The notes: generated by a model from the letters alone, not told the origin. Counted from the first letter of the stretch, positions 1,352 through 64,000 are shown. The stretch: 64,000 nt of DNA from Squalus acanthias (GCA_030390025.1 CM059431.1:125056001-125120000); one strand, 5' to 3'. Numbers and translations are program-made.

Positions 1352-2622
1352 TTTTTTTTATTCATTCACGGGATGTGGGCACCGCTGGCAAGGTCAGCAT
1401 TTATTGCCCATCCCTAATTGCCCTTCAGAAGGTGGTGGTGAGCTGCCTTCTTGAACCGCTGCAGTCCATGTGGTGAAAGTACTCCCACAGTGCTGTTAGG
1501 GAGGGAATTCCAGGATTTTGACCCAGCAACGATGACGGAACAGCAATATATTTCCAAGTCAGGATGGTGTGTGACTTGGACAGGAGCTTGGAGGTGGTGG
1601 TGTTCCCATGCACCTGCTGCCCTTGTCCTTCTAGGTGGTAGAGGTCGCGGATTTGGGAGGTGTTGTCGAAGAAGCCTTGGTGAGTTGTTGCAGTACATCT
1701 TGTAGATGGTACACACTGCACACTGCAAACACGGTGTGCCGGTGGTGGAGAGAGTGAATGTTTAAGGTAGTGGATGGGGTGCCAATTCTGCTTTTCCCTG
1801 GATGGTGTCGAGCTTCTTGAGTGTTGTTGGAGCTGCACTCATCCAGGCAAGTGGAGAGTATTCCATCACACACCTGACTTATGCCTTGCAGATGGTGGAA
1901 AGGCTTTGGGGTGTCAGGAGGTGAGTCACTTGCCGTAGAATGTCCTGCCTCTGACCTGCTCTTGTAGCCACAGTATTTATGTGGCTGGTCCAGTTATGTT
2001 ACTGGTCAATGGTGACCCCCCAGGATGTTGACGGTGGGGGAATTTGATGATAGTAATGCCGTTGAATGTAAAGGGGAGGTTGTAGACTTTCTCTTGTTGC
2101 AGATAGTCATTGCCTGGCACTTGTATGACGCGGATGTTACTTGCCACTTATCAGCCCAAGCCTGAATGTTGTCCAGGTCTTGTTGCATGCGGGCACGGAA
2201 TGCCTCATTATCTGAGGAGTTGAGAATGGAACTGAACACTGTGCAATCATCAGCGAACATCCCCACTTTTGACCTTATGATAGAGAGAAGGTCATTGGTG
2301 AAGCAGCTGAAGATGGTTAGGCCTAGGACACTGCCCTGAGGAACTCCTGCAGCGATGTCCTGGGGCTGTGATGATTGACCTCCAACAACCACAACCATCT
2401 TCCTCTGTGCTAGGTATGACTCCAGCCAGTGGAGAGTTTTTCCCCTGATTCCCATTGACTTCAATTTTACTAGGGCTCCTTGATGCCACACTCGGTCAAA
2501 TGCTGCCTTGATGTCAAGGGCAGTCACTCTCACCTCACCTCTGGAATTCAGATCATTTGTCCATGTTTGGACCAAGGCTATAATGAGTTCTGGAACGAGT
2601 GGTCCTGGCGGAAACCAAACTG
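1352..2622 (-). mobile_element. 5'-truncated CR1/Zenon-like non-LTR retrotransposon, copy A (RT and 3' end)
   Basis: ORF 2006-2575 has the RT motifs ALDIKAAFDRVWH, GVPQGSVLG and MFADD. The A-rich 3' tail is shared with copies B, C and D. Confidence 0.9.
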
Positions 2623-7000: not shown

Positions 7001-7950
7001 GAATTGAATTGTCTCCCCCGCCACTTGGTGTCGGGTCAGTTCTCCGCAGACAGACCCGACACCTGGGAGACTCATGTGGAGGTGGGTTGACAGCAGGTTT
7101 CCTACCCGTTGTCAATCTTTGCTATTTTCACAGCAGACTGCCTCCATACCCCCCCTCTGATCTCTGGCAAAATCCAGCCCAAAGTATTTGTTTAATTTCC
7201 CTGCCATTTCATTATTCCCCATTAAAATTTCTCCTGTCTCAGCCTGTAAGGGACCCACATTTATTTTCACTAATCTTTTCCTTTTTACATACCTATAGAA
7301 GCTTTTACAGTCTGTTTTTATGTTTCTCGCTAGTTTACTCTCATATTCTATTTTCCCTTTCTTTATTCATTTCTTCGTCCTCCTTTTCCTGAATTCTAAA
7401 ACCTCCCAATCCTCAGACTTACTACTCTTTTTGGCAGCATTATAAGCCTCTTCTTTTGATCCAATAACTTCTCTTGTTAACCACGGTTGGACCACTTTTC
7501 CTGTAGGGTTTTTGTGCCTTATAGGAATGTATATTTGTTGTAAATTAGGTTTTAATTCTTTAAATGCTAGCCTTTGCTTCTCTACTGTCATACCTTTTAA
7601 TGTAGTTTCCCAATCTACCTTAGCCAACTCACCCCTCATAGTTACGTCATTTGCTTTGTTTAGATTTAAGACCCTAGTTTTGGAATTAACTAAATCACTT
7701 TCAAACTCAATATAATATTCTATTATATCATGGTCACTCTTCCCTAAAGTCCCCTTTACTACAAGGTTATTAATTAACCCTTTCTCGTTGCATAACACTA
7801 GATCCAAAATAGCCTGTTCCCTAGTTGGTTCCTCAACATACTGATCTAGAAAACTATCTTGCATACATTCCATGAATTCGTCCTCCACACTATAACTGCA
7901 AATTTGGTTTGCCCAGTCTATATGTAGATTAAAGTCCCCCATGATTACTG
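4037..7950 (-). mobile_element. Decayed CR1 LINE ORF2 (endonuclease and RT), interrupted by a Harbinger derivative
   Basis: EN motifs GDFN, LDLVL and SDH in ORF 7367-7942; KSPGPDG, YLDFQKA and FADDTK; C-terminal RRMRGDLIETY...NFFTQRVVNLW; (CATAAGAA)n tail at about 4037. Frameshifts and a deletion near 4990. Confidence 0.9.
5696..7180 (+). mobile_element. Non-autonomous PIF/Harbinger element retaining part of the Myb/SANT gene
   Basis: Perfect 12-bp TIR GGGCTGGATTTT/AAAATCCAGCCC; AAA TSD (5693-5695 and 7181-7183); the CR1 rejoins when it is removed. Encodes APRLTHDSLHMLMEGVTARREILFPSHGRKR, homologous to the exon at 57185. Confidence 0.88.
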
Positions 7951-9377: not shown

Positions 9378-10640
9378 CAACAACAACTTGTATTTATATA
9401 GCGCCTTTAACATAGTAAAATGTCCCAAGCAGTTTCACAGGAGTGTGACAAAGCAAAATTTGACACCAAGCCACATAAGGAGAAATTAGGGCAGATGACC
9501 AAAAGCTTGGTCAAAGAGGTAGGTTTTAAGGAACATCTTAAAGGAGGAAAGAGAGGTAGAGAGGCAGAAAGGTTTAGGGAGGGAATTCCAGAGCACAGCC
9601 TAGGCAGCTGAAGGCACGGCTGCCAATAGTTGAGCGATTAATATCAGGGATGCTCAAGAGGCCAGAATTAGAGGAGCGCAGATATCTTGGAGGGTTATGG
9701 GGCTGGAGGAGATTATAGAGATAGGGAGGGATTTGAAAACAAGGATGAGAATTTTAAAATCGAGGCGTTGCTTAACCGGGAGCCAATGTAGGTCAGCGAG
9801 CACAGGGGTGATGGGTGAATGGGACTTGGTGCGAGTTAGGACATGGGCAGCTGAGTTTTGGATGACCTCAAGTTTACATAGGGTAGTACGTGGGAGGCCA
9901 GCCAGGGGTGCATTGGAATAGTCAAGTCTAGAGGAAACAAGGGCATGGATGAGGATTTCAGCAGCAGATGAGCTGAAGCAGGGGCGGAGACTGGCAATGT
10001 TACGGAGGTGGAAATAGGCAGTCTTAGTTATGGCGCGGATATGTGATCCGAAGCTCACTTCAGAGTCAAATATAACACCAAAGTTTCGAAATGTCTGGTT
10101 CAGCCTCAGACAGATGCTAGGGAGAGGGATGGAGTTGGTGGCTACGGAACTGAGTGTGTGGCAGGGACCAAAGACAATGCCTTCGGTCTTCATAATATTT
10201 AGTTGAAGTAAATTTCTGCTCATCCAGTACTGGATGTCGGACAAGCAGTCTGACAATTTAGAGACCGTGGGGGGATTGAGAGAAGTGGTGAGGTAAAGCT
10301 GGGTGTCGTCAGTGTACGTGTGGAAACTGATGCTGTGTTTTCGGATGATGTCGCCGAGGGGCAACATGTAGATGAGAGATAGGAGAGGGCCAAGGATAGA
10401 TCCTTGAGGGACACCAGAGGTAACGATGCGGGAAGAGAAGCCATTGCAGGTGCTTCTCTGGCTATGATTAGATAAATAAGAATGGAACCAAGCGAGTGCA
10501 GTCCCACCCAGCTGGACCACGGTGGAGAGATGTTGGAGGAGGATGGAGTGGTCAACCGTGTCAGAGGCTGCAGACAGGTCGAGAAGGATGAGGAGGGATC
10601 GTTTACCTTTGCCACAGTCACATAGGATGTCATTCGAGTC
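9378..10640 (-). mobile_element. L2-clade LINE, 5'-truncated
   Basis: ORF 9654-10520 has GVPQGSILGP, YTDDTQLY, SRLDYSN and LHWLPVKQR; (CAA)n-type tail at about 9378. Confidence 0.9.
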
Positions 10641-10856
10641 TCTAGAGTTCTGTTTACAATTTTGGTCACCATAATACAGGCATTAGCAGGCTCCCATCCA
10701 GAGAAATGCCATCAAGAAGGATCCCAGCGGTGCTCAGGAGGGAGATGCAGCAGTGATGCAGTGGGACACCTGCTGCAGCAAAAGAAGAGGAGTGAACCTA
10801 TTCAAAGGGGGCCTAAGTCCTCCAAAAACTGCATCAAATTCTTCACTGAAGACTTC

Positions 10857-14957: not shown

Positions 14958-17698
14958 TTTTTTAAAATTCATTCAAGGGATGTGGGCGTCGCTGGCAAGG
15001 CCAACATTTATTGCCCATCCCTAATTGCCCCACAGAAGGTGGTGGTGAGCCGCTTTCTTGAACTGCTGCAGTCCGTGTGGTGATGGTACCAGTGCTGTTA
15101 GGGAGGGAATTCCAGGATTTTGACCCAGCGACGATGAAGGAACAGCGATATACTTCCAAGGCAGGATGGTGTGTGACTTGGAGGGGAACTTGGAGGTGGT
15201 GGTGTTCCCAAGCGCCTGCTGCACTTGTCCTTCTAGGTGGAAGAGGTCGCGGGTTTGGGAGGTGCTGCCGAAGAAGCCTTGGCGAGTTGCTGCAGTGCAT
15301 CTTGTAAATGGTACACACTGCAGCCATGGTACGCCGGTGGTGGAGGGAGTGAATGTTTAAGGTGATGAATGGGGTGCCAATCAAGCGGGCTGCATTGTCC
15401 TGGATGGTGTCGAGTTCATGAGTGTTGTTGGAGCTGCATTCATCAAGGCAAGTGGAGAGTATTCCATCACAGTCCTTACTTGTGCCTTGTAGATGGTGGA
15501 AAGGATTGGGGAGTCAGGAGGTGAGACACTTGCCGCAGAATACCTAGCCTCTGACCTGCTCTTGTTGCTACAGTATTTATGTGGCTTGTCCAGTTAAGTT
15601 TCTGGTCAATGGTGACCCCCAGGATGTTGATTGTGGGAGATTCAGCGATAGTAATGCCGTTGAATGTCAAGCGGCGGTGGTTAGATGCTCGCTTGCTGGA
15701 GATAGTCATTGCCTGACACTTGTGAGGCGCGAATGTTACCTGCCATTTATCAGCCCAAGCCTGAACGTCATCCAGGTCTTGTTGCATGCGGGCATGGACT
15801 GCTTCATTATCTGAGGAGTTGTGAATGGCACTGAACACTGTGCAGTCAGCAGTGAACATCCACATTTCTGACCTTATGTTGGAGGGAAGGTCATTGATAA
15901 AGCAGCTGAAGATCTTTGGGCCTACGACACTGCCCTGAGGAACTCCTGCAGCGATGTCCTGGGGCTGTGATGATTGACCTCCAACCACCACAACCATCTT
16001 TCTTTGTGCTAGGTATGACTCCAGCCAGTGGAGAGTATTCCCCCCGATTCCCATTGACTTCAGTTTTACTAGGGCTCCTTGATGCCACACTCGGTCAAAT
16101 GCTGCCTTGATGTCAAGGGCAGTCACTATCCTCTGGAATTCAGCTCCTTTATCCATGTTTGGACCATTGCTGTTCTGAGGTTGGGAGCCGAGTGGTCTTG
16201 GCAGAACCCAAACTGGGCATCAGTGAGCAAGTTATTGGTGAGTAAGTGCCGCTTGAATGCACTGTCGATGACACCTTCCATCACTTTGTTGATGATTGAG
16301 AGTAGACTGATGGGGCAGTAATTGTCCGGATTGGATTTGTCCTGCTTTTTGTGGACAGGACATACCTGGGCAGTTTTCCACATTGTTGAATAGATGCCAA
16401 TGTTGCAGCTGTACTGGATCAACTTCGCCAGATGCGTGGCTAGTTCTGGAGCACAAGTCTTCAGCACGACAGCCGGGATGTTGTCGGGGCCCATAGCCTT
16501 TGCTGTATCCAGTGCGCTCAGCCATTTCTTGATATCACGTGGAGTGAATCGAATTGGCTGAAGACTGGCTTCTGTGATGATGGGGACGTCAGGAGGAGGC
16601 TGATATGGATCATCCACTCGGCACTTCTGGCTGAAGATGGTTGCAAATGCTTCAGCCTTGTCTTTTACACTCACGTGCTGGGCTCCACCATCATTGAGGG
16701 TGGGGATATTCTTGGAGCCTCCTCCTCCCGTTAGTTGTTTAATGGTCCACCACCATTCACGACTGGATGTGGCAGGACTGCAGAGCTATGATCTGATCCA
16801 TTGATTATGGGATCTCTTAGCTCTGTCTATAGCATGCTGCTTCCGCTTTTTAGCATGCATGTAGTCCTGTGTTGCAGCTTTCCCAGGTTGGCACCTCATT
16901 TTTAGGTACACCTGGTGCTGCTCCTGGCATGCTCTTCTAAACTCCTTATTGAACCAGAGTTGGTCCCCTGGCTTGATGGTAATGGTAGAGTGAGGAATAT
17001 GTCAGGCCATGAGGTTACAGATCGTGGTGAATACAATAGTGCTGCTGTTGATGGCCCACAGTGCCTCATGGATGCCCAGTTTTGAGCTGCTAGATCTGTT
17101 CTGAATCTATCCCATTTAGCACGGTGGTAGTGACACACAACACGATGGAGGGTATCCTCAGTGTGAAGACGGTACTTCGTCTCCACAATGACTGTGCGGT
17201 GGTCACTGCTACCAATACTGTCATGGACAGATGCATCTGTGACAGGTAGATTGGTGAGGACAAGATCAAGTAGGTTTTTCCCTCATGTTGGTTCTCTCAC
17301 CACCTGTCGCAGGCCCAGACTGGCAGCTATGTCCTTTAGAACTCGGCCAGCTCGGTCAATAGTGGTGCTACTGAGCCACTCTTGGTGATGGACATTGAAG
17401 TCCCCCACCCAGACTGCACTCTGTGCCCTTGCTACTCTCAGTTCTTCTTCCAAGTGGTGTTCAACATGGAGGAGTACTGATTCATCAGCTGAGGGAGGGC
17501 GGTAGGTGGTAATCAGCAGGAGGTTTCCTTGCCCATGTTTGACCTGAAGCCATGAGACTTCATGGGATCCGGAGTCAATGTTGAGGACTCCCAGGGCTAC
17601 TCCTTCCCAACTGTATACCACTGTGCCACCACATCTGGTGGGTCTGTCCTGCCGGTGGGACAGGACATACCCAGGGATGGTGATGGAGGAGTTTGGGA
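14958..17698 (-). mobile_element. CR1/Zenon-like LINE, copy B (EN and RT, slightly 5'-truncated)
   Basis: ORFs 17283-17825 (YRPP, WVGDFN), 16126-16674 (KAMGPDNIP, PISLL) and 15476-16156 (RT); colinear with copy D. Confidence 0.92.
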
Positions 17699-23561: not shown

Positions 23562-24464
23562 GGCCTCAAAATTGGTTTGCGCCAGCAGGCCGGCTTGATC
23601 TTGGCACAGGGAATGATGGCTGCGCCAGAACTGGTAGGCCTGAGGCATGCCCGATATCGTGCCTCAGGCCTCATTCAGTCCCCAGGCAGCTTGCCAGCAA
23701 AGAAGGTTTCAATTTGGGGCCACTGCATTGATGATAGGTTGGGTAGGTCTTGGAAGAAGGGGGTGACTGGGAGATGGGGGTGACTGGGAGATAGAGGTAA
23801 CTGGGAGATGGGGGTGACTGGGAGATAGAGGTAACTGGGAGATGGGGGTGACTGGGAGATAGAGGTAACTGGGAGATGGGGGTGACTGGGAGATAGAGGT
23901 AACTGGGAGATGGGGGTGACTGGGAGATAGAGGTAACTGGGAGATGGGGGTGACTGGGAGATAGAGGTAACTGGGAGATGGGGGTGACCGGAAGAGGGAG
24001 GTAACCGGGAGATGGGGGTGACCGGGAGAGGGAGGTGATCAGGAAGGGGCGATCGGGAGAGGAAGAGGTCAACGTGCCGAGCGAGGGGGGTAAGCGGTGC
24101 TCAGAAACGGCCTGTGGTTTTAATGTGGAACCCGGAGGAGCACGTAAGTTTTTTTTAATAACTTACATTTTTGGTGGCGCCCTGCAGTGGTCCCTTTAAG
24201 GACAGCTGGTTTGACTGCATATAGGCCTGGTTTACCTGGCGCCGGCTGCATTTAAGTAAAACAATTTGGTAAAGGAGGCATCAGCCATGCATTAGGACCC
24301 CTATTTGCATATACAAAAGGCCTAAAGCCTGTTTCAGTTGTGAACCCTGGATGCCTCTTTTGATGCCTATACGAATATGGTGGGCAGCGCACTGCCAGTG
24401 CAGAATTAGCGCGTGTACGTGGATGCTTTGGTGCTCGTTTGCAGCATCATCGAATTTCTAGGCC
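23562..24464. mobile_element. Harbinger-type MITE carrying a minisatellite
   Basis: TIR GGCCTCAAAATT / AATTTCTAGGCC; ATT TSD at 23559-23561 and 24465-24467. Confidence 0.78.
23760..24030 (+). repeat. 34-bp minisatellite made of alternating 17-mers
   Basis: GGGGGTGACTGGGAGAT alternates with AGAGGTAACTGGGAGAT, about 15-16 monomers, degenerating to the right. Confidence 0.95.
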
Positions 24465-28371: not shown

Positions 28372-29088
28372 GAGGAGGTGGAGAGGCACAGCTGCCAATG
28401 GTGGGGTAATGGATTTTGTGTTACACAAAAGGCCAGAGTTGGAAGAACGCTGAGTTCTTGGAAGGTTGTAGGGCTGGAAAAGGCTACAGAAATAGGGAGG
28501 GGCAAGACATGAAGGGGTTTGGATATGAGGATCAGAATTTTAAATTGGAGGCGTAGGGGACTGAGAGCCAAAGTAGGCCAGCGAGCACAGGGGTGAAGGG
28601 TGAGCAAGACTTGATGCGGGATAGGATACAGGCAACACAATTTTATATCAGCTGGTTTATGGAGGATGGGAGGCCAGCCAGGAGAGCACTAGAATAGTCA
28701 ATTCTAGAGATGACAAATACATGGATTTTGGTAGCAGATGCACTGAGGCAGAGGCAGAGACAGATGGTGTTGTGGAGGTGGAAGTAGGCAGTCTTTGTGA
28801 TGAAGGGAATAGGGGGTTGGAAACTCATTTAAGGGTCAAATAAGATGCTGAGGTAGCAAACAGCCTGATTCAACCTGAGATAACAGCCAAGGAGGGGGAT
28901 GGAGCTTGTCGCAGGGGCCAAAGATGGTGGTTTCAGCTTTCCTAAGGATTAACTTGAGGAAATTGCGACTGATTCAGGACTGGATGTTGGACAAGCAGTC
29001 TGACAACACAGAGGTAGTGCAGGGGTCGAGGGAGGTGGTGGCAAGTTAGTGCTGGGTGTTGTCAGCCTACATGTGCAACCTGACCCCA
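28372..29088 (-). mobile_element. Decayed L2 LINE fragment
   Basis: ITKTAYFHLHN, SRIDYS and FKILIL; colinear with 9600-10320. Confidence 0.8.
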
Positions 29089-33065: not shown

Positions 33066-33349
33066 TGGGGCTTCAGTCTGGTGTGCGAAGCAATCGCTTT
33101 GTCAACTTGCCACCAGTTTTGGGCTCAAGTCCAATTACTTGACCAAAATTTCTCAAGTGCACAATAGCGGGTGTGAAGCGAATAGGATATCATAATGTTA
33201 AATAACCCTAACAATGAAAATAATCTTCAGAAGTAATGTTGTAGAAATTATAGAAATTACAGAAATTGCTTGCATGCTTTAGTAAAGCATGTCTTGTAAT
33301 AGAAATACAAAAGCAAAATACTGCAGATGCTGGAAATCTGAAATAAAAC

Positions 33350-34953: not shown

Positions 34954-36052
34954 TTCAGGGGGAAAACTCTCCACTGGCTGGAGTCATACCTAGCACGAAG
35001 GAAGATGGTTGTGGTGGTTGAAGGTCAATCATCACAGCCCCAGGACATCACTGCAGGAGTTCCTCAGGGCAGTGTCCTAAGCCAAACCATCTTCAGTTGC
35101 TTCATCAATGACCTTCCCTCCAACATAAGGTCAGAAATGGGGATGTTCGCTGATGACTGCACAGTTTTCAGCGCCATTCACAACTCCTCAGATAATGAAG
35201 CAGTCCATGCCCGCAGGCAACAAGACCTGGACTGCATTCAGGTTTAGGCTGATAAGTGGCAGGTAACATTCGCACCACACAAGTGCCAGGCAATGACTAT
35301 CTCCAACAAGCGAGAGTCTAACCACCGCCCCATGACATTCAACGACATTACCATCGCCGAATCACCCACCACCAACATCCTGGGGAGGTCACCATTGACC
35401 AGAAACTTAACTGGACCAGCCACATAAATACTCTGGCAACAAGATCAGATCAGAGGCTAGGTATTCTGCGGTGAGTGTCTCACCTCCTGATGCCACAAAG
35501 CCCTTCCACCATCTACAAGGCACAAGTCAGGAGTGTGCTGGAATACTCTCCACTTGCCTGGATGAGTGCAGCTCCAACAACACTCAAGAAGCTCAACACC
35601 ATCCAGGACAAAGCAGTCCGCTTGATTGGCACCCCATCCACCACCTTAAACATTCACTCCCTCCACCACCGGCGTACCGTGGATGCAATGTGTATCATCT
35701 ACAAAATGCACTGCAGCAACTCGCCAAGGCTTCTTCGGCAGCACCTCCCGAACCCGCAACCTCTTCCACCTAGAAGGACAAGGGCAGCAGGCACATGGGA
35801 ACACCACCACCATCAAGTTCCCCTTCAAGTCACACACCATCCTGACTTAGAAGTATATCGCCGATCCTTCATCGTCGCTGGGTCAAAATCCTGGAACTCC
35901 CTCCCTAACAGCACTGTGGAAGTACCTTCACCACATGGACTGCAGCGGTTCAAGAAAGCGGCTCACCACCACCTTCTCAGTGGCAATTAGGGATGGGCAA
36001 TAAATGCTGGCCTTGCCAGCGACACCCACATCCCATAAACATTAAAAAAAAA
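34954..36052 (+). mobile_element. CR1/Zenon-like LINE, copy C (5'-truncated), inserted in Myb exon 2
   Basis: GVPQGSVL and MFADD; near-identical to 46520-47608; A-tail at about 36044-36052. Confidence 0.92.
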
Positions 36053-36720: not shown

Positions 36721-37377
36721 AGGAGATGCCAATGACTGCAATGGAGGAGGTGCAGCAACCAGACTCCGTCCTTCCTTCAGCGGAGATGTTCCTGGATGGA
36801 ATGACCTTGGCCGATCCGAAGGGGTCGGAGTTTGGACGGGTTTCCATGGACGGGACGAGGCGTTTCAGCTGCTCCAAGTGTGGGAAGGGCTTTAACCGAA
36901 ACTACCGGCTGAAACTGCACCTGCTCGTCCACACGGGGGAGAAGCCCCTGAAGTATCCGGACTGTGGGAGGGGATTCATTGACCCCCTCCAACCTCCGCA
37001 AGCACCGGCGCACGCACACGGGGGAGGATGAGGTAATTGACCTGGTGGTCCGGTGACACCAAGCTTGGCTTTTTAAAGGTCTCGACTTTGGGAGGAAGGG
37101 AGGGGCGGAGTTGTTCAGTCTGAGATCTCGGAAAAGAACGAGATAGAGTAGGAGACGGCGCGATGAGGCTTCATTGCAACACGGTGAGGAGGCGGGAGAC
37201 AGTAGTGTGTAGGAGATGCCAATGACTGCAATGGAGGAGGTGCAGCAACCAGACTCCATCCTTCCTTCAGCGGAGATGTTCCCGGATGGAATAACCTTGG
37301 CCGATCCGAAGGGGTCGGAGTTTGGACGGGTTTCCACAGACGGGACAAGGCGTTTTAGCTGCTCCAAGTGTGGGAAG
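36721..37377 (+). repeat. 167-bp direct duplication (36721-36887 and 37211-37377), 490-bp period
   Basis: About 7 mismatches by eye, all transitions. Confidence 0.95.
36726..37056 (+). pseudogene. Small two-finger C2H2 zinc-finger ORF (about 109 aa after one frameshift correction)
   Basis: FSCSKCGKGFNRNYRLKLHLLVH-TGEKP-LKYPDCGRGFIDP/SNLRKHRRTHTGEDEVIDLVVR*; +1 frameshift in a C run near 36985; the first Cys of finger 2 is Tyr. Confidence 0.8.
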
Positions 37378-37876
37378 TCCCATGGAAGGAGTTCAGCGAA
37401 GATTCACAAGGCTGATACCTGGGATGGCAGGAATGACATATGAGGAGAGATTGGGTCGATTGGGCTTATACTCGCTGGAGTATAGAAGAATGAGAGGGGA
37501 TCTCATCGAAACATATAAAATTCTGACAGGTCTGGACAAACTAGATGCAGGAAGAATGTTCCCGATGGTCGGAGAGTCCAGAATCAGGGGTCATAATCTA
37601 AGGATAAGGGGTAAGCCATTTAGGACAGAAATTAGGAAGAATTTCTTCACCCAGAGAGTGGTGAACCTGTGGAATTCTCTACCACAGAAGGTAGTTGAGG
37701 CCAAGTCATTAAATATATTCAAGAATGAGTTAGATATATTTCTTAAAGCTAAAGGTATCAAGGGATATGGGGAGAAGGCAGGTACAGGGTACTGAGTTTG
37801 GATGATCAGCCATGATCTCATCGAATGGTGGAGCAGGCTCGAGGGGCCGAATGGCCTACTCCTGCTCCTATCTTCC
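37378..37876 (+). mobile_element. CR1 3' end
   Basis: VQRRFTRLIPG...RRMRGDLIETYK...FFTQRVVNLWN; the tail matches the reverse complement of 4050-4130. Confidence 0.9.
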
Positions 37877-38029
37877 ATGTAGGACAGGGGAATTTGAAGC
37901 CGAGGAGGAGCAGGAGAAGGACATTCAGAGGGAGCACTGATGATGCGAGTGATGACCGGGATGGGAAAGCTAGTGATGAGATGAGAATTTGGCTTCTGTT
38001 TTGAGAGTCACAGCTGATGACTGTGTATA

Positions 38030-38575
38030 ACTCTGGTCGCCATATTATTAAAAGGATATAGAGGCACTGGAGAGGGTGCAAAATGATTTACTAGGTTGAT
38101 ACCAGAAGTGCGAGGTTATACCTATCAGGAAAGGATGAACAGGCTGGGTCTTCATTTCTCTTGAAAAGAGAAGGCTGAGGGGGTGACCTAATAGAGGTCT
38201 TTAAAATTATGAAAGGTTTTGATAGTGTAGATACAAAGAGAGTGTTTCCACTTGTGGAGAAGAGCAAAACTAGAGGCCATCAATAGAAGATAGTCACCAA
38301 GAAGTCAAATAGGGAATTCAGAAGAAACTTCTTTACCCAGAGAGTGGTGAGAATGTGGAACTCGCTACCACAGGGAGTAGTTGAGGTGAATAGTACAGAT
38401 GCATTAAAGGGAGGCTAGATAAGCATATGAGGGAGAAGGGAATAGAGGGTTATGATGATAGAGTTAGATGAGGAAAGACGGGAGAAGGCTCGAGTGGAGC
38501 ATAAACGCCAGCATGGACTGGTTGGGCCGGAGGGCCTGTTTCTGTGCTGTATATCCTATGTAATCTTATGTAATG
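38030..38575 (+). mobile_element. CR1 3' end, different subfamily
   Basis: DIEALERV, GDLIEVFKIMKG and NFFTQRVVRMWN; repeated TATGTAAT tail at about 38556-38575. Confidence 0.85.
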
Positions 38576-40649: not shown

Positions 40650-41474
40650 GCTGATCTGATAGATGCCAGGTAAAGTAGAGATCAGAGAGCCAATCCCTCA
40701 ATGTTCTAATCGTGACTAGCAATGTGGTGAGAGTGGCTTCCGAGGTTGCAGCAATCATCTGCAAACTCCTGCCAGCTGAACCTCTGCACAAAATGGAGTC
40801 AGCAAGAACCTTTCCATTAGGCAAGGAAGCAGGTGTAATGTGTGCATATTTATGTGTTTTTCCCAGCTGTCACTTAATGGACTCGCAAAATGGCCACTGA
40901 GCTTCCGCCTGCCCTTCACAGGAGAGCTTCCCGAGGTGCGTGAATCCCATGATCAAGAAGTTAAAGCTAAATCCTGGTGTTAAAAACCCCCTTAAAGGTC
41001 TCTCAACAAGCATTTAAGTACTTCAATGAGGTTGCCCACCTCTCCCGAGCGGGTCCGCGGCACGCTGGGAAACACGCCCGAGTTAAATGCGAAAGTCAGC
41101 GGGATGACGGCGGTTTTCCGACGCACTGGCAATTTCCGTGAATTTCCTGCTGACCCGCCCCCGAACCGGCATGCTCGGCTCTGGGGAAATTCCAGCCATT
41201 AACTCTGTTTCTCTCTCCACAGATGCTGCCTGACCTGCTGAGTATTTCTAGCATTTTCTCTTTTTATTTCTTGTAAGTACGGAATTCTTTTCAGAAAATT
41301 GTGTTTCAAAAGGATTATTGCCTCAATAACCTACTATGAATTTAGCAACAAGCCAGAAATCTAACCTCCAAATTTGAATCAGAACTGAAAGTTAGAATTG
41401 ACGCAAATGTAGATCCCCAATTTCTATGGAGTTGATATTGTTATGGATAGATAGTAAGGACTTACTATGTGTTA

Positions 41475-43465: not shown

Positions 43466-45177
43466 CCAAGTAATCACAACCATGTTTCCTGCCTTATCAG
43501 TGAAAGATTGCTTGTTACTTTCACCAATTTTATTTCACTTTGAAAAATCTTTTTGCCTGGCAAAGCATTTAAAGAAATATTAAAAATTAAGGGTACTTTC
43601 TACCCTCTCCATCTCAACCTGTATTTTCTCTGTATATTCCATCATTACTACTATGGTTGTTGCTTCTCCTAACTTTCCACTCATTTTGCTTATATACTCC
43701 AAATACAGTGCTCGACATCCTCTTTCTCCTCCCTGCATTCTCACTGTGTTGAAACCAAGAAACAGACTTGACTCAACTCAATACATCACTCCATGTACTT
43801 GCAGCAAACAGGTTTGAACCATGACTGGACCAGCAGTGCCTTTCTGGCATCAAGGAGTTTTAGATCAATGGCATTTAATCTGAGTGTAACCAAGTGCTAC
43901 AGTCTTTATCACAGTGAAAGCAGTAAGTGGAATGAAATGGCTGCATCTTCTTTAGGATTGATCTTATCTGAACACATCAATGCGATAACCTACTAAATAC
44001 CCTATGAAACATTTGTACCTGTAAAAAGATGATCAAAAATATTTTTAAGGAATGACATCAGGGAACGGTAGCGTAGTGGTAATGTCACTGGGCTAGTAAT
44101 CCAGAGGCCTGGACTAATGATCCCACCACGGCAGCTGGGGAATTTAAATTCAGTTAATTAAATAAATCCGGAATAATTACTAGTATCAGAAATGGTAACC
44201 ATGAAACTATTGGATTGTCATCAAGGAGTTTTAGATCAATGGCATTTAAAAACCCATCTGGTTCACTAATGTCCTTTAGGGAAGGAAATCTGCCGATCCT
44301 TATCTGGTCTGGCCTATATGTGACTCCAGACCCACAGCAATGTGGTTGACTCTTAACTGCCCTCTGAAATGGCCGAGCAAGTCACTCAGTTGTAATAAAC
44401 CGCTACGAAAAACAATAAAAAGAATGAAACCGGACGGTACGCCCGGCATCGACCTCGGCACCGGCTACGGACACGGCAACGGCACACCCAGCCCAGTCGA
44501 CCCTGCAAAGTCCTCCTCACCAACATCTGTGCCAAAATTGGGAGAGCTGTCCCACAGACTAGTCAAGCAACAGCCTGACATAGTCATACTCACAGAATCA
44601 TACCTTTCAGCCAATGTCCCAAATTCCGCCATCACCATCCCTGGGTATGTCCTGTCCCACCGGCAGGACAGACCCACCAGTGGTGGCGGCACAGTGGTAT
44701 ACAGTCGGGAAGGAGTGGCCCTGGGAGTCCTCAACATTGACTCTGGACCCCATGAAGTCTCATGGCTTCAGGTCAAGCATGGGCAAGGAAACCTCCTGCT
44801 GATTATCACCTACCGCCCTCCCTCAGCTGATGAATCAGTACTCCTCCATGTTGAAAACCACTTGGAAGAAGCACTGAGAGTAGCAAGGGCACAGAATGTA
44901 CTCTGGGTGGGGGACTTCAATGTCCATCACCAAGAGTGGCTTGGTAGCACCACTACTGACCGAGCTGGCCGAGTCCTAGAGGGCATAACTGCCAGTCTGG
45001 GCCTGCGACAGGTGGTGAGAGAACCAACATGAGGGAAAAACTACTTGACCTCGTCCTCACCAATCTACCTGTCGCAGATGCATCTGTCCATGACAACATT
45101 GGTAGCAGTGACCACCGCACAGTCATTGTGGAGACGAAGTCCCGTCTTCAAACTGAGGACACCCTCTATTATGATGA

Positions 45178-45397
45178 TAGCAAAATACTGCGGATGCTGG
45201 AAATCAGAAATAACAACAGAAAACGCTGGAAAAACTCAGCAGGCCAGGCAACATCCGTGGAGAGAGAAAGAGAGTTAACGTTTCAGGTCGAAACCCTTCG
45301 TCGGAACTGAGAGAGCAAGAAATAAACAGATAAAAATGCAAGGGGGAGGCTGGGGGGAGGAATAAAAGAACAAAAGGGATGGTCTTTAGTGAGTAGA
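45178..45397 (-). mobile_element. Penelope-like terminal fragment inserted in LINE D
   Basis: Flanked by GACACCCTCTAT (45158-45169 and 45398-45409); homologous to 53728-53920. Confidence 0.85.
45273..45308 (-). ncRNA. Minimal hammerhead motif (CCGACGA core variant)
   Basis: Minus strand reads agtt-CCGACGA-a-gggt(ttcg)acct-GAAA-cg-TT-aact. Confidence 0.6.
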
Positions 45398-48300
45398 GAC
45401 ACCCTCTATCATGTTGTGAGGCACTACCACCGGGCTAAATGGGATAGATTCAGAACTGATCTAGCAGCTCAAAACTGGCCATCCATGAGGCGCTGTGGGC
45501 CATCAGCAGCAGCAGAATTTTATTTCACCACAATCTGTAACCTCATGGCTCAGCATATCCCTCATTCTACCATTACCATCAAGCCATGGGACCAACCCTG
45601 GTTCAATAAGGAGTGTAGAAGAGCATGCCAGGAGCAGCACCAGGCGTACCTAAAAATGAGGTGCCAACCTGGGGAAGCTGCAACACAGGACTACATGCAT
45701 GCTAAAAAGCGGAAGCAGCATGCTATAGACAGGGCTAAGCGATCCCACAATCAATGGATCAGATCAAAGCTCTGCAGTCCTGCCACATCCAGTCGTGAAT
45801 AGTTGTGGACCATTAAACTACTAACGGGAGGAGGAGGCTCCATGAATATCCCCATCCTCAATGATGGTGAAGCCCAGCACGTGAATGCAAAAGACAAGGC
45901 TAAAGCGTTTGCAACCATCTTAAGCCAGAAGTGCTGAGTGGATGATCCATATTGCCTCCTCCTGAGGTCCCCACCATCACATAAGCCAGTCTTCAGCCAA
46001 TTCGATTCACTCCATGTGATATCAAGAAACAGCTGAGCGCATTGGATACAGCAAAGGCTATGGGGCCCCAACAACATCCCGGCTATCGTGCTGAAGACTT
46101 GTGCTCCAGAACTAGCCACGCCTTTAGCCAAGCTGTTCCAGTACAGCTACAACACTGGTATCTATCCGACAATGTGGACACCTGCCCAGGTATGTCCTGT
46201 CCACAAAAAGCAGGAGAAATCCAAACCGGCCAATTATCGCCCCATCAGTCTACTCTCAATCAACAGCAAAGTGATGGAAGGTGTCATCGACAGTGCTATC
46301 AAGTGGCACTTGCTCACCAATAACCTGATCACTGATGCCCAGTTTGGGTTCTGCCAAGACCACTCGGCTGCCAAGCTCTTTACAGCCTTTGTCCAAACAT
46401 GAACAAAGGAGCTGAATTCCAGAGGAGAGGTGAGAGTGACTACCCTTGACACCAAGGCAGCATTTGACCGAGTGTGGCATGATGGAGCACTAATAAAACT
46501 GAAATCAATGGAAATCGGGGGGAAAACTCTCCACTGGCTGGAGTCATACCTAGCACGAAGGAAGATGGTTGTGGTGGTTGAAGGTCAATCATCACAGCCG
46601 CAGGACATCACTGCAGGAGTTCCTCAGGGCAGTGTCCTAGGCCCAACCATCTTCAGCTGCTTCATCAATGACCTTCCTTCCAACATAAGGTCAGAAATGG
46701 GGATGTTCGCTGCTGACTGCACAGTGTTCAGTGCCATTCACAACTCCTCAGATAATGAAGCAGTCCATGCTCGCATGCAACAAGACCTGGACGACATTCA
46801 GGCTTAGGCTGATAAGTGGCAGGTAACATTCGCGCCACAGAAGTGCCAGGCAATGACTGTCTCCAACAAGCGAGAGTCTAACCACTGCCCCTTGACATTC
46901 AATGGCATTACCATCGCCAAATCCCCCACCATCAACATCCTGGGGGTCACCATTGACCAGATGCTTAACTGGACCAGCCATATAAATACTGTGGCAACAA
47001 GAGCCGGTCAGAGGCTAGTTATTCTGTGATGAGTGTCTCACCTCCTGACTCCCCAAAGCCTTTCTACCATCTGCAAGGCACAAGTCAGGAGTGTGATGGA
47101 ATACTCTCCACTTGCCTGGATGAGTGCAGCTCCAACAACACTCAAGAAGCTCAACACCATCCAGGACAAAGCAGCCTGCTTTATTGGCACCCCATCTACC
47201 ACCTTAAACATTCACTCCCTCCACCACCGGCGTACCGTGGCTGCAGTGTGTACCATCTACAAGATGCACTGCAGCAACTCGCTAAGGCTTCTTCAGCAGC
47301 ACCTCCCAAACCCGCGACCTCTTCCACCTAGAAGGACAAGGGCAGCAGGCACATGGGAGCACCACCACCTCCAAGTTCCCCTCAAGTCACACATCATCCT
47401 GACTTAGAAGTATATCGCCGATCCTTCATCGTCGCTGGGTCAAAATCCTGGAACTCCCTCCCTAACAGCACTGTGGGAGTACCTTCACCAGATGGACTGC
47501 AGTGATTCAAGAAGGCGGCTCACCACCACATTCTCAAGGGCAATTAGGGTTGGGAAATAAATGCTGGCCTTGCCAGTGACACCCAGATCGCATAAACAAA
47601 TTTAAAAAACATCAGGGACCTGTCTCTGCAAAAATTACTACATAAATCCAAGTGAAGCATATGCTTACACGAATTAAAAGTCAAAAATACTACACATCTC
47701 TCAAATGTACTTTATTTTAAAACAATAATATTATAATTTTAAATATACATTAATGCACTCACACTCTCCAGAGGACTTTGTATTTTTAAATAGTGATAAT
47801 AAAAAGGTTTTAAATGAAAGATAAAGGCACAAAAATTCAAAAAAGAAATCTTAGCCAGCATACATAAGGCAGGATTGTTTTGCAAGATTTTTTTTTAAAG
47901 AAAGCAACTATTCCGTGTTTTAATGATTTATTCTGAATTTTCTCAGCCTTGTATTACTGTAATATAGAGAAATATAGGGTCTATTATTGTATATTTTCCG
48001 CCACTGGATATTTCAGTTTTTGATTTGCATGCTGGACCAAACGATAAGCTATGAGAAAAGATGGATTTGCTGTTATAATAATGACTGCACATTACAATTT
48101 GTCATGAGGCACTTTGTGATGTCTTGAGGACATGATAAGGATTCTTATAAATGCGAGTTCTTTTTCTAGCATGGATAGATGTCTATTTCGCTATGCAATG
48201 TATAATTCTGTGGGTAGTAATGGGTTTATATCTTTATTGTTTAGATCAGTGCAGTACTGTGCAGACAGCAAAGCCAGTATTGTGATGGGTCAGGACAGGA

Positions 48301-49770: not shown

Positions 49771-49900
49771 CCTGACGAAAGGTCATCAACCTGAAACGTT
49801 AACTCTGTTTCTCTCTTCACAGATGCTGCCTGACCTATTGAGTATCTCCAGCATTTTCTGTTTTTATTTCAGATTTCCAGCATCTGCAGTATTTTCTTTT
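49771..49900 (+). mobile_element. Penelope-like terminal fragment beginning at the hammerhead core
   Basis: CTGACGAAAGGTCATCAACCTGAAACGTTAACT..., the reverse complement of 53728-53830. Confidence 0.8.
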
Positions 49901-53727: not shown

Positions 53728-55500
53728 TAGAAATAAAACCAGAAAATGCTGGAGATACTCAGCAGGTCAGGCAGCATCTGTGAAGAGAGAAACAGAGTTA
53801 ACGTTTCAGGTCGATGACCTTTTGTCAGAACTGGAAAAAAGCAGGAAATGGAACAGATTTTTAAGCAAGTGTAGGAGCTGGGAAAGGCGGGAGGGGATGA
53901 AAGAACAAAAGGGAAGGTCTGTGATAGGATAGAAGACAGGAGAGGTTAAGAGACATTAAGAGACATTAAGAGATATTCAGGGCAAAAGGAGATGGTAATG
54001 GGACAGGTTAAGAAACAAAAGATGGCTCTAGATGAAGTGTAAATTGCGCTGGCAGAATGAAAGACAGCTGCCATGTGGGAGAGAAGAAAAGAAAACACAA
54101 ACAAAAAAAAAACACAAAAAAAAAGTGTGGAAAAAATATATATATGATAGGGGCCGAGGTTATGATCTGAAATTGTTGAACTCTATGTTGAGTCCAGAAG
54201 GCTGTAAAGTGCCTAATCGAAAGATGAGGTGCTGTTCCTCGAGCTTACGTTGAGCTTAAGTGGAACAATGTAAGAGGCCGAGGACGGTGAGGTCTGAGTG
54301 GGAGTGCAGCGGAGAATTAAAGTGACAGGTGACCGGAAGCTCGGGGTCCCCCTTACAGACTGAACGGAGGTGTTCCGCAAAGCGGTCACCCAATTTGCGT
54401 TTGGTCTCCCCAATGTAGAGGAGACCGCATCGAGAGCAGCGAATACAGTATACTAAATTGCAAGAAGTACAACTAAATCGCTGTTTCACCTGGAATGGGT
54501 GTTTGGAGCCCTGGACAGTGGGAAGGGGGGAGGTATAAGGGCATGTGTTGCATCTCCTGCGCTTGCACGGGAAGGTGCCGGGCGAAGGGGAAGGGGTGTT
54601 GGGGGTGATAGAGGAGTGGACCAGGGTGTCGCGGAGGGAGCGGTCCCTTCAGAATGCTGAAAGGGGAGGTGAGGGGAAGATGTGTTTGGTGGTGGGATCA
54701 CGCTGGAGGTGGCGGAAATGGTGGAGGATGATCTGTTGAATGTGGAGGCTGGTGGGGTGAAAGGTGAGGACAAGGGGAACCCTATCGTGGTTCCAGGAGG
54801 GAGGGGCAGGGGTGAGGGCAGAAGTGCGGGAGATAGAACGGACACGGTCAAGGACTGTGTCAACCACAGTAGAGGGGAATCCTCGGTTGAGGAAAAAGGA
54901 AGACATGTCGGAAGCACTGGTATGGAAGGTGGCATCGTCAGAGCAGATGCGGCGGAGACGGAGAAACTGGGAGAATGGAATAGAGTCCTTACAGGAGGAG
55001 GAACACTACAGTGGGAGGAAGTGTAGTCCAGGTAGCTGTGGGAGTCAGTGGGCTTGTAGTGAATGTTTGTCAATAACCTAACCCCAGAGATGGAGATGGA
55101 GAAGTCGAGGAAGGGAAGGGAAGAGTCGGAGATGGACCATGTGAAGTTGAGGGAAGGGTGGAAATTGGAAGCAAAGTGAATGAAATTTTCTAGTTCAGGG
55201 CGAGAGCAGGAAACGGCACTGATACAGTCATCAATGTACCGGAAAAAGAGGTGAGGGAGGGGACCTGAGTAGGATTGGAACAAAGAATGTTCCACATATC
55301 CCACGAAAAGACAGGCATAGCTAGGACCCATGCGGGTTCCCATAGCAACAACTTTGATTTGGAGGAAGTGAGTGTAGTCAAAGGAGAAGTTGTTCAATGT
55401 GAGAACAAGTTCAGCCAGGCGGAGGAGGGTGGTGATGGATGGGAACTGGTTGGGCCTCTGTTCAAGGAAGAAGCGGAGCGCCCTCAGGCCATCCTGGTGG
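53728..55500 (-). mobile_element. Penelope-like element: RT, GIY-YIG endonuclease and terminal repeat, 5'-truncated
   Basis: AMGTRMGPSYACLFVG and FFRYIDD in ORF 54486-55397; LVYCIRCSRCGLLYIGETKRKLGDRFAEH in ORF 54256-54489; frameshifted. Confidence 0.93.
53796..53832 (-). ncRNA. Minimal hammerhead motif with a mutated core (CTGACAA)
   Basis: Minus strand reads agtt-CTGACAA-a-aggtc(atc)gacct-GAAA-cg-TT-aact. Confidence 0.55.
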
Positions 55501-56904: not shown

Positions 56905-59100
56905 GGGCTCGATATTGCCAGTGTGGGCGGGCTGGGGCGTGTCAGGTGGTTTTCGTGTCAGGACCCCGACTCCGATGTGAAATGGCAAAAAAGTGCAATT
57001 TTGCGCTAATTGGGCACTTGATTTCCAGCGTGTGGAAACCCCTGGCCCAATGAGTCTTTTCATACAGAAAGTCGCCTCCGATGACGTCATCAATGCTGCT
57101 GGATTTAAGGCCTGCAAGCCGCCTTGCTTCTTTTGGAGACTTTAAACTTTATGCCCATTGTTGTGATCGCTTCATTCAGCAACTATGTCCAGCAGTAGGC
57201 CAAAGTGTGCTCCAAGATTCGATGAGGCCTCCCTCCAAGCTCTGCTGGAGGGAGCAAGATCAAATAAAGAGGTGCTCTTCCCTTCCTCAGGGAGGAAAAA
57301 GTCTCCCCAGCAGATTAAAGTTATGTGGCTGCAAGTGGCCCAGGAGGTCAACTCAATGTCTATGTGCTGCAGAACCTTGCTGCAGTGCATGAAGAGGTTT
57401 CATGACCTTCTTCGCACAGGAAAAGTGAGTATGACATTCCCATCACTCTCAATCTGATCCCCATTGCCTCTCCTCACCAGCACTCTGCTTTGCCAACCTC
57501 TTCCTCCACATCCCACTTGACACTTACATCCCTGCACACTTACCATTCCCTCTCTCTCTATGGTCACATTCACTTAACTATTCGACCATGCAACCCTCAC
57601 ACTCCCTGTCACTGTGATGCAATGACAACAACTTACAACACACAGGGAGGGCCCTTTGTCTCCTTCTAAGCATCTATGCTATGGATTCTCTACACTCACT
57701 CCTTCATTCTCACTCAAACTCCACTTGTGTCCCTCATCGCAGGAAAAGAGAGCCCACAATAAGAGGGAAAGAGCGAGGACAGAAGGAGGGCCACCCTCAG
57801 TAGCCCAGCTCACCACTTCGGAGGAGGCGGCCCTGGAAATCACCGGTGTGGAGGACGATTTGCAAGTGGGCGACGGACAGACGGGCGCATCACAGCAAAT
57901 TGGTGACAGAATAGTTTGGCATCTCTCTCATTGACATTGCATGAGTGACTGATAATGATTCTGATGCTCCAACAGATTGACTTATGATCATCTGCACAAT
58001 TCAATGTGCATGTAACCTTGGCCTTACATCTCTAACTCTTTCCTTTACTCCCCCACAGGACCATCGAGAGCCCCTGTCCCCACTGTCCAGGAGGAACAGC
58101 CTGAGCCTCAAGACTCCTCAGAGGAAGCTGCAACCTCTGAGGGCGCAGCGTCAGCAGAATTCAGCGCACCCAGCACCCAAACAGACACTCACACCTCGGT
58201 GGGACCTTCGTGAGATAGAGTAGTGTTGTCACCTGGTGTATCACAGCTCACAAGTGAGCTTCAGCAGATGGTGGAGACAGGGACAGCAGTGGAGAGTCCT
58301 CGTCGGAGGGCGCAGGACTCTGCCAGCTCAGCTAAGCTGCATGTCGACCCTGTGCCTCCGGGTCCATCCAGAAGGAGAGCGGTGCTGGAACTCCAGGAAC
58401 AGGTGCAGGAGTCTCTGGCAGGTTTTGTCTCCAGGGTCGCTACAAATGCGGAGCGAATGGAGGAGTCAGTTGCGAACATGAGTCGAGCCTTTGTGGAGGC
58501 ATTGGCGCATGAATGCATCACCACAAAAGGATTACAACCTCCGTGGAAAGGATGGCTATGGTAGTGGAGAGGATGGCTATGGCCATGGAGGAGCTAAGTG
58601 ACCAGAGTGTTGAAAACATGGTCCTTGTTCAGAATAAACTGACATCTCTTGAGGAGTGATGGTCAGCTATTGAGCATAGAAACCAGTCCTTCATGGAAGT
58701 CCTCTGGAGTAGGACTTCCAGCGCAGAAACGGGTCCTCATGGCCCCCCTGAAGTGCAGCAAGGTGCTGTCAATCCACTTGCTTGCTCTGAAGTGGGGCTG
58801 ACCCATGAGATGGATGTTGGTGGCAGACAACAAGGAAGTGGGGGCTCCTCTCCAAGCGCTCACATGACCATGCCACTGTAAAGATGGGCGTCTCAGCCCC
58901 TGCACAGCTGCAGGAGCAGCAGACTGATACCGAGCCCTCACAGGTTCGCAACCCCAGAGGACGGCCGCCAAAGGTGTTGAGACAGGAGCAGCAAGAAAGT
59001 GAGCAAGGGGCCTCCACATCTGCTGAAGCCACAGGGGAAGCACCACGTACAAGCATGCGTAAGAGGAAGATAAAGCACAAAACTAAAGGATTCATTGTCC
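56905..59100 (+). mobile_element. Harbinger left half (terminus, promoter and Myb gene)
   Basis: Terminus GGGCTCGATATT, repeated at 63932, followed by the Myb gene. Confidence 0.8.
57185..59095 (+). pseudogene. Harbinger Myb/SANT-like gene, 3 exons (57185-57424, 57743-57902, 58059-about 59095)
   Basis: Exons 1 and 2 are open and in phase (MSSSRPKCAPRFDEASLQALLEG...CMKRFHDLLRTGK|EKRAHN); GT-AG sites; exon 3 has stops and frameshifts; basic C-terminus RKRK. Confidence 0.85.
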
Positions 59101-61244: not shown

Positions 61245-61281
61245 TCACAAGCTTTCGGAGCGCTGCTCCTTCGTCAGGTGA
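61245..61281 (-). ncRNA. Minimal type I hammerhead ribozyme motif with intact core, within a repeat fragment at 61197-61281
   Basis: Minus strand reads tcac-CTGACGA-a-ggagc(agc)gctcc-GAAA-gc-TT-gtga. Confidence 0.78.
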
Positions 61282-62798
61282 CTCCATCCCTCCTCTACAT
61301 AGCATCTGCCTGAGGCTGAACCAAACTCTTCACAACCAGAAGTGTGCTTTCAGCCACATATCTGTGGCATAACTAAGACAGCCTATTTCCACCTCCGTAA
61401 CATTGCCCAACTCTGCCCCTGCCTCAGCTCATCTGCTGCTGAAACCCTCATCCATGCCTTTGTTACCTCTAGACTTGACTATTACAATGCACTCCTGGCT
61501 GGCCTCCCACGTTCTACCCTACGTAAACTTGAGGTCATCCAAAACTCAGCTGCCCGTGTCCTAACTCGCATCAATTGCCATTCACCCATCACCCCCCATG
61601 CTCTCTGGCCTACATTGGCTCCTGGTTGTAAGATTCCAATAAAACCGCTGCTACCGTGTGCAGATCGAAGTTCAGAATGAATTGTGAAATGGTTACAGAC
61701 GGATTCAAAATGTAGGAATTCAGCATGTGTTCTTTGTTTGTGAAGACACAAAATGGCAGAAGTCAGCAGGGGTTCCTTTGCCTGGTGGTCAGCATGGTCC
61801 TTTGTTTGAGAGGCCACATGGACAGGAAGGAGGAACATGAGTGACAAGGAAGTCCAGCCCCCACACACCTCACAGGAACAGGAACATGTCATGCGGAAGG
61901 AACTCCAATCAAGGAAGGTTTGGAGTGAAACTGACCTATCAGAGGGAGGCAGACAGTGATATACGAGGGAGGTCAGCAGAAAGGCCATATAAAGAGTGAC
62001 CCGGGGGGTGGGGGTGGGGGAAATTCAGAACACAGAAGGGACAAAGAAGACAGAACGGAAGAACAGACGAACAGAGGAAGCTGGCCAGTCTAAGTTTCGA
62101 CCTACAACTTTTCTGCATTGATCACCCAGAGATAAAGGAGATTGTATGAAAATCGGACATAGAGCTTAGATATTGTTAAAGGGGTACTTTTATGGACGGT
62201 TGACTTGGAATATAAATCACCCAGAGGTAGCGTGTAGATTGCTGGGAAGTATTTTTAATACGGGTAAATTGGGCGCATATTGATTGCGACGTACACTTGA
62301 ATTTTGAACTGTAGTGTGAATAAAAACCAATTTTATTGATCACATACTTGTCTGTCATTGTTACGCTTATTCGTAATTCTCAAGGTCCGAACAGTAGTAA
62401 GAGAAATGCTTACATGGTTAAGCAATGCCTCAATATTAAAATTCTCATCCTTGTTTTCAAATCCCTCCATGGCCTCACCCCTCCCCATCTCTGTAATCTC
62501 CTCCAGCCCCACAAACCCCCGAGATATCTGTGCTCCTCTAATTCTGGCTTCTAGAGCAATCTGATTTTAATCGCTCAACCATTGGTGGCTATGCCTTCAG
62601 CTGCCAAGTCCCTAAGCTCTGGAATTCCCTCCCTAAATCTCTCCATCTCTACCTCTTTGACTAAGCTTTTGATCATCTGACCTAATTTCTCCCTGTGTGG
62701 CTCGGTGTTAAATTTAGTTTTATAAAACTCCTGTGAAGCGCCTTGTGACGTTCTACTGCTTTAAAGATGCTATGTTAATATAAGTTGTTGTGGTTGTT
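61280..62798 (+). mobile_element. L2 LINE 3' part, split by a solo LTR
   Basis: ITKTAYFHLRNIA...SRLDYYN; resumes at 62415 (VKQCLNIKIL); (TTG)n tail at about 62783-62798. Confidence 0.88.
61627..62414 (+). mobile_element. Solo LTR, 788 bp
   Basis: TGTAAG...CTTACA termini; 4-bp TSD TGGT (61623-61626 and 62415-62418); TATAAA at 61988; AATAAA at 62319. Confidence 0.92.
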
Positions 62799-63931: not shown

Positions 63932-64000
63932 GGGCTCGATGTTGCCAGTGTGGGCAGGCTGGGGTGTGTTAGGTGGCATTTGTGTCAGGACCCCGACTCC
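63932..64000 (+). mobile_element. Start of a second copy of the 56905 Harbinger terminus (runs off the window)
   Basis: Colinear with 56905-56973. Confidence 0.85.

Follow-up and report, generated by a model that had tools for sequence, protein, structure and literature searches.

Elasmobranch CR1-Zenon LINEs begin with a tRNA-derived head bearing A and B boxes, a candidate promoter for RNA polymerase III

In the textbook division of labour, long interspersed nuclear elements (LINEs) are coding and transcribed by RNA polymerase II (Pol II), while short interspersed nuclear elements, or SINEs, do not code and depend on RNA polymerase III (Pol III) for transcription (PMC10886601). What, then, is a SINE-type head doing on a LINE? 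The question is raised by a 64 kb stretch of Squalus acanthias DNA (CM059431.1:125056001-125120000, hereafter the window), in which an element at 44061-47609 opens with a tRNA-like sequence and runs on into the endonuclease and reverse transcriptase (RT) frame of a LINE. We find that this element is a full-length, decayed copy of a CR1-Zenon LINE, and comparison of consensus sequences establishes that elasmobranch Zenon normally opens with a tRNA-derived head carrying A and B boxes, common to four shark orders and a ray. The family is known; its promoter head of SINE type is well conserved and has apparently gone unremarked. That Pol III transcribes the whole 3.3 kb Zenon from these internal boxes is, on sequence grounds, slightly favoured in our judgement. 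The wider proposal, which we hold tentatively and rate somewhat short of an even chance, would make elasmobranch Zenon an autonomous coding retrotransposon that depends on Pol III RNA, selected to be free of terminators and translated independently of a cap, in an arrangement that pre-dates the shark-ray split and yields SINEs by deletion.

The initial annotation had taken head and LINE for a single insertion within a 10-bp target-site duplication (TSD), and this holds: within the window the 10-mer is found at 44055 and at 47609 and nowhere else. The boundary itself shifts a little: the SquAca_Zenon-1 consensus begins at window position 44061 and its first 4 nt are the last 4 nt of the 10-mer (44061-44064), so that the element starts at 44061 with 4 nt of microhomology at its 5' joint. 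It was inserted as one unit by target-primed reverse transcription. Its placement in elasmobranch CR1-Zenon follows the published families (PMC13343379) and its identity to SquAca_Zenon-1, about 95% by eye over the first 400 nt of the consensus, its own indels excepted. The features that bear on the head are as follows.

44055-44064, + strand: left TSD, from the repeat and the consensus start; last 4 nt common with the 5' end of the element
47609-47618, + strand: right TSD, from the repeat
44061-44135, + strand: tRNA-derived head, the same in 7/7 elasmobranch Zenon consensuses
44069-44079, + strand: A box starting at position +9, fitting the consensus at 11/11 positions in a pattern scan
44088-44104, + strand: anticodon-arm-like hairpin from folding, with a 5-bp stem, a 7-nt loop and AGT at the anticodon position
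44120-44127, + strand: 20-nt deletion site, flanked by ATCC repeats, at which this copy lost its B box, from the consensus and run X1
44222-44247, + strand: copy-specific 26-nt insertion templated by the upstream flank 43845-43878, containing one of the copy's two TTTT
44248-44394, + strand: non-coding block of about 150 nt, by eye the best-conserved 5' part across sharks and ray in the consensus rows

The consensus for an A box is TRGCNNARYGG, which has two matches on the + strand of the window and one on the - strand. The earlier description of the head as tRNA-like with an A box is upheld, as is the loss of the B box from this copy: 20 nt are absent after 44123, flanked by ATCC direct repeats, and the B box is present at that place in the consensus and in one copy in the public DNA run X1. 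Neither ARAGORN nor Rfam called a tRNA in this copy; Rfam over 43900-44700, at E up to 10, gave neither a tRNA nor a ribozyme match. A fold of 44061-44150 does not form a cloverleaf, the acceptor stem is gone, and the anticodon-like hairpin (z -1.2) is not significant alone. The flank that templated the 26-nt insertion lies 370 bp upstream and matches at 33/34 positions; templated insertion of this kind is typical of break repair after insertion. In the conserved block a possible stem (44278-44305) stays paired, by eye, despite a G-U change in the ray row and a double change in that of the whale shark. An HDV-like ribozyme was considered there and dropped, also by eye, because the spacing does not fit.

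Is the head a peculiarity of this copy? We compared by eye the first 400 nt of ten Zenon consensus rows from the supplement of PMC13343379: seven elasmobranch rows of 2,886-3,314 nt from five species (SquAca_Zenon-1/2/3 from Squalus and Zenon-1 of CarCar, RhiTyp, ScyCan and HypSab, that is, Carcharodon, Rhincodon, Scyliorhinus and Hypanus), two from hagfish and one from coelacanth. The tRNA-like head opens all seven elasmobranch consensuses and none of the three from hagfish and coelacanth. Each of the seven begins with G, 5-10 nt ahead of an A box that fits at 11/11 positions; the B box is exact in 6/7, the ray row being short of one base, and the anticodon-like arm is kept. Differences within the boxes are confined to degenerate positions, while the bases ahead of the A box and those between the anticodon arm and the B box vary among species. 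As to family size, Table S3 of the same paper gives denominators of 59-2,313 for six of the seven rows, which we read as near-full-length insertions. Its main text contains neither 'tRNA' nor 'promoter', and the head is present only in the supplementary sequences. Nor did we find a description of a tRNA head or of Pol III use in shark Zenon in the literature searched, which left Repbase, Dfam and most subscription papers outside.

Both checks suggested by the initial annotation, on other full-length members and on the boxes of a consensus head, therefore came out in favour of a family-wide head, and shark proteins from other loci agree. The 5' frame has 14 protein matches, of which two are named Heterodontus francisci. 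Of the 14, P0006 and P0014 run from inside the head (44298-44325) onward into LINE sequence; continuity of head and body is weaker in P0011, which has separate head and APE matches, and in P0004, which by eye begins at an AUG in the head's end. Summed depth in run X1, although not equal to copy number, rises from 0.52-0.74M in the head to 0.72-0.88M in the first bins of ORF2 and to 4-12M near the 3' end, which is a normal gradient of 5' truncation with no excess of free heads. We therefore give almost no credence to a one-off chimera, formed by template switching as in human tRNA/L1 and U6/L1 or by two adjacent insertions. Such events do happen, with 21 tRNA/L1 loci known in human (PMC13174262), and the three other Zenon copies of the window are headless, being 5'-truncated; the same junction in 7/7 elasmobranch consensuses, the proteins just named and a head depth close to that of the 5' part of the ORF refute it.

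Exact head patterns matched no viral or metagenome contig, an RT profile found no relative in viral contigs, and ARAGORN, run on 46 of 80 RT loci used as controls below, many of them without 5' ends, revealed no tRNA-headed relative outside sharks. Its sole call, a tRNA-Ile at L023:1965-2039 (-), lies inside an RT-bearing ORF, on the opposite strand, and is probably spurious.

Behind the head the element is a decayed Zenon, with the following parts.

44510-45157, + strand: APE endonuclease domain of ORF2, broken, from Pfam and translation, with an 8-nt deletion near 44528
45410-47547, + strand: remainder of ORF2, with the RT core at about 46200-46800 and several stops and frameshifts, from Pfam and translation
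47548-47608, + strand: short 3' untranslated region with AATAAA at 47556 and an A tail, from the sequence
45158-45409, - strand: later nested insertion (45170-45397) of the 3' end of another repeat, with a 12-bp TSD at 45158 and 45398

Pfam recognises APE at E 3e-09 and RT at E 8e-19, and a direct reading of the sequence places the end of ORF2 at the TAG of 47545-47547; a protein search for long homologues returned three distant proteins only. The APE motif starts at about 44510, some 450 nt from the 5' end, leaving no place for a full-size ORF1, as had been noted at the outset; Zenon always lacks ORF1 and carries a poly-A tail (PMC13343379), hence the absence is not unusual. This copy is dead: besides the stops and frameshifts of ORF2, among them a stop and a frameshift near 45030-45040 in the APE domain, it has the 20-nt B-box deletion, the 26-nt insertion and a loss of 8 nt at the start of the APE domain relative to the consensus and run X1. 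The nested insert, 240 nt long and probably the 3' end of a LINE or SINE, has an empty site in the window copy 14959-17698 and in runs X1 and X16; other copies of that repeat lie at 53729-53920, 49774-49895, 41199-41271 and 33312-33346. The three further Zenon copies of the window, at 1352-2622 (-), 14959-17698 (-) and 34955-36049 (+), are 87-94% alike; none reaches the head, and A tails are present in all four copies.

How might such a head serve a LINE? We propose that a tRNA or SINE head was captured once by an ancestral Zenon, early in elasmobranchs. Its internal A and B boxes would recruit TFIIIC and Pol III, with transcription starting at the G 5-10 nt ahead of the A box, and every full-length copy would keep its promoter because the promoter is internal. 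Pol III would read the whole 3.3 kb, as the removal of TTTT from the sense strand would allow, and would stop at the first T run of the flank, here at 47715. The same RNA would be both template and ORF2 message, cap-independent initiation possibly using the conserved 150-nt block, and internal deletions from head to tail would yield ready-made SINE-like elements. The conservation of the boxes, kept in 7/7 (A) and 6/7 (B) rows while neighbouring bases vary, and the depletion of T runs described next favour the head as a putative Pol III promoter.

A stretch of at least four T terminates Pol III transcription. Once tails and copy-specific inserts are excluded, the sense strands of the four window copies hold 2 TTTT in a total of 8,322 nt, neither of them present in more than one copy, so that the count of sense-strand terminators, proposed in the initial annotation, finds none that the copies share; at position 45520, run X1 has G in 289k of a depth of 302k. 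Other LINE fragments of the window hold 24 TTTT in 5,747 nt, and the window as a whole has a background of some 6 per kb. These fragments, at 4185-7948 (-), 37382-37871 and 38022-38412 (+), and at 9501-10643 (-), 28384-29083 (-) and 61281-62791 (+), are old and of two other LINE types, to which tblastn hits and composition alone gave the names CR1-like and L2-like. The copy at 14959-17698 has 2,731 nt without any TTTT. As RT controls we took 80 related metagenome loci and used the 45 with a stop-free frame of at least 1.5 kb, dropping 35: none of the 45 frames is TTTT-free, the longest interval without one measures 1,296 nt, and the 11 controls matched in T content hold 71 TTTT in 25.6 kb (1.0-4.8 per kb). 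Under a synonymous-codon shuffle, the 14959-17698 copy has no run of four T where 2.8 are expected (P 0.022) and 7 runs of three T where 13.7 are expected (P 0.001), a T-specific deficit, as runs of the other three bases are normal; its ratio for three-T runs lies below all 45 controls (control minimum 0.66). In one control frame (L078:99-3050), 2 runs of four T stand against 9.0 expected, so that such a deficit is possible elsewhere. Finally, in the first 400 nt TTTT is found in none of the seven elasmobranch consensuses versus 3/3 from hagfish and coelacanth.

Several points weigh against Pol III transcription of the whole element. Codon shuffling of the 44061-47609 copy gives 1 run of four T against 3.2 expected (P 0.11; three-T runs, P 0.07), a dinucleotide shuffle expects 2.2 such runs there (P 0.32), and the two short copies are not significant (P 0.27 and 0.80). 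The four copies, being of common descent, are not independent, eight run types were tested per copy, the RT controls are remote, at 29-43% identity, and their clade is unverified, and the consensus count covers the first 400 nt while it is the remaining body that bears directly on the terminator claim. The deficit of T runs is thus real-looking but moderate (codon-shuffle P 0.02-0.1). The B box of one consensus in seven lacks a base, and the AATAAA near the tail fits Pol II equally well. RNA that lacks a cap makes a poor message, and its translation would need explaining. The fold of the conserved block is not unusual, its folding energy in this copy being ordinary (z -0.05), and neither block nor tail folds better than shuffles. 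For autonomous LTR elements, weak processivity of Pol III has been argued to exclude such a use of its promoters (PMC10886601).

Part of this would follow if the head were a relic, an old SINE-LINE fusion fixed by chance, with its boxes conserved through slow evolution or through exchange of ends between LINE and SINE, and the lack of TTTT a by-product of a strand poor in T and in TT. Slow shark evolution alone conserves much, Zenon consensuses being more than 84% alike overall (PMC13343379), which counts against the Pol III reading as well; the TT odds ratio is 0.75, with about 2 runs expected, and the B box is damaged both in the 44061-47609 copy and in one published consensus. Damage in a dead copy is to be expected, however, and a relic would not explain why the boxes stay constant while the bases before and between them diverge, nor why no control frame, those of matched T content included, is free of TTTT. 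We consider a relic improbable.

If full-length Zenon carries a Pol III promoter, do short forms exist that join head to tail? The initial annotation had suggested that a short partner could be an internal-deletion derivative whose head leads directly into a tail from 47535. Such forms do exist, with joints at 47474-47512 rather than at 47535. Among the joints listed, 44366 to 47506 and 47508 and 44394 to 47512 occur in run X1 (public contigs), and 44366 to 47505, 44394 to 47510 and 44406 to 47474 in run X16, presumed to be RNA; they predict short units of about 400-480 nt. Depths of 169-577 at the joints, against 6-85 for single pieces, suggest that each represents several copies; among the joints listed these forms are a small share of head copies. 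The 5' and 3' parts of the LINE are joined directly: on the tail side the joints fall within the final codons of ORF2, and on the head side one of them lies past 44394, as expected for deletions of the LINE. SacSINE1, CmiSINEs and HE1 were tried as the partner SINE and rejected by their described bodies and tails. In X16 the head reaches a depth of 11.8-22.9k, 4-10 times that of the first ORF2 bins (2.3-2.9k), an excess that fits transcribed short forms; DNA or read-through could also be its source.

This excess, unlike the DNA profile, suggests that much head RNA is short, and so also favours a split of labour in which the head is functional, the protein comes from capped Pol II RNA (initiated in the 150-nt block or by host read-through), and Pol III or TFIIIC has a supporting role. 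Pol III might then make only the copied template or short derivatives, or TFIIIC might only keep chromatin open. Such an arrangement would solve the cap problem; AATAAA at 47556 agrees with it, as does the intronic position of many whale shark Zenon copies (10.1101/443036). A purely Pol II account leaves unexplained the deficit of sense-strand T runs and the 5' ends fixed just ahead of the A box, and the version in which Pol III makes the template still requires it to read through 3.3 kb. We regard split labour as a possible though unlikely alternative to Pol III transcription and translation of a single RNA.

One further feature bears on the start of ORF2.

44424-44527, + strand: conserved AUG and short frame of about 50 codons, overlapping the APE start in another frame, predicted for the family

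The AUG at 44424 is kept in the consensus rows of all five species, and in codons 2-15 of the short frame 8/13 differences fall at third positions (5/9 without CpG sites, by eye). No Met was found in the APE-region frames examined in two copies. Initiation of ORF2 may itself be unusual, because the 44424 frame seems to overlap the start of APE out of frame; this indication, drawn from a single consensus row plus a loose-end consensus, is weak. The frame is possibly a tiny ORF1-like one, coupled to ORF2 by frameshifting or reinitiation.

Elsewhere in the window, self-BLAST shows a sequence repeated in tandem every 68 nt or so (23751-24097), and there are local duplications at 56905-56973 and 63932-64000 (90% alike) and at 36721-36887 and 37211-37377 (96% alike).

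Were the Pol III reading true, the textbook split between LINEs and SINEs would no longer hold, for here an abundant vertebrate LINE would combine a conserved type-2 Pol III promoter with a coding strand devoid of terminators. It would offer a natural test case for the reading distance of Pol III and for translation of uncapped RNA, and would add a route to the birth of SINEs, by deletion of a LINE that already has a tRNA head. Repeat libraries will split shark Zenon into a 'SINE next to LINE'.

Among known systems, the elasmobranch Zenon LINEs of PMC13343379 are the same family and show no structural difference, being likewise APE-RT elements of about 3.3 kb that have an A tail and lack ORF1. 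SINE2 elements, including HE1/HER1, SacSINE1 and the CmiSINEs (PMC3747384, PMC5499810), resemble Zenon in having a tRNA head with A and B boxes, a body and a LINE-type tail, but they are non-coding, have V, Deu or CORE bodies and tails of HER1, CR1 or L2 type, and share only the tail with a LINE; in Zenon the autonomous element itself carries the head, and the full element, with its 3.3 kb and APE-RT, is not a SINE. RTE-1_DAn and elements related to it (PMC5786205) are LINEs with a tRNA-like sequence, of the RTE clade; this is the only precedent found, and it limits any claim to be first. The TRIMp3 elements Cassandra, Helenus and Ajax (PMC10886601) are likewise retroelements with Pol III promoters derived from small RNAs, but they are short, non-coding LTR elements whose autonomous partners are assumed to use Pol II. 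Chimeras of tRNA and L1 (PMC13174262) also carry tRNA sequence at the LINE's 5' end, inside a single TSD; they differ in being single events, mostly with antisense half tRNAs, and not propagating families. For the short forms, the nearest parallel is Persaeus, a SIDE of lepidopteran Zenon (PMC6740152), which also arose by internal deletion of a LINE but lacks tRNA homology and a Pol III promoter. Bipartite RTE and Vingi derivatives and Bov-tA (PMC5786205) are again short elements made by internal LINE deletion; in Bov-tA-type SINEs the tRNA head was added after the deletion, whereas in Zenon deletion alone gives a SINE2-like structure.

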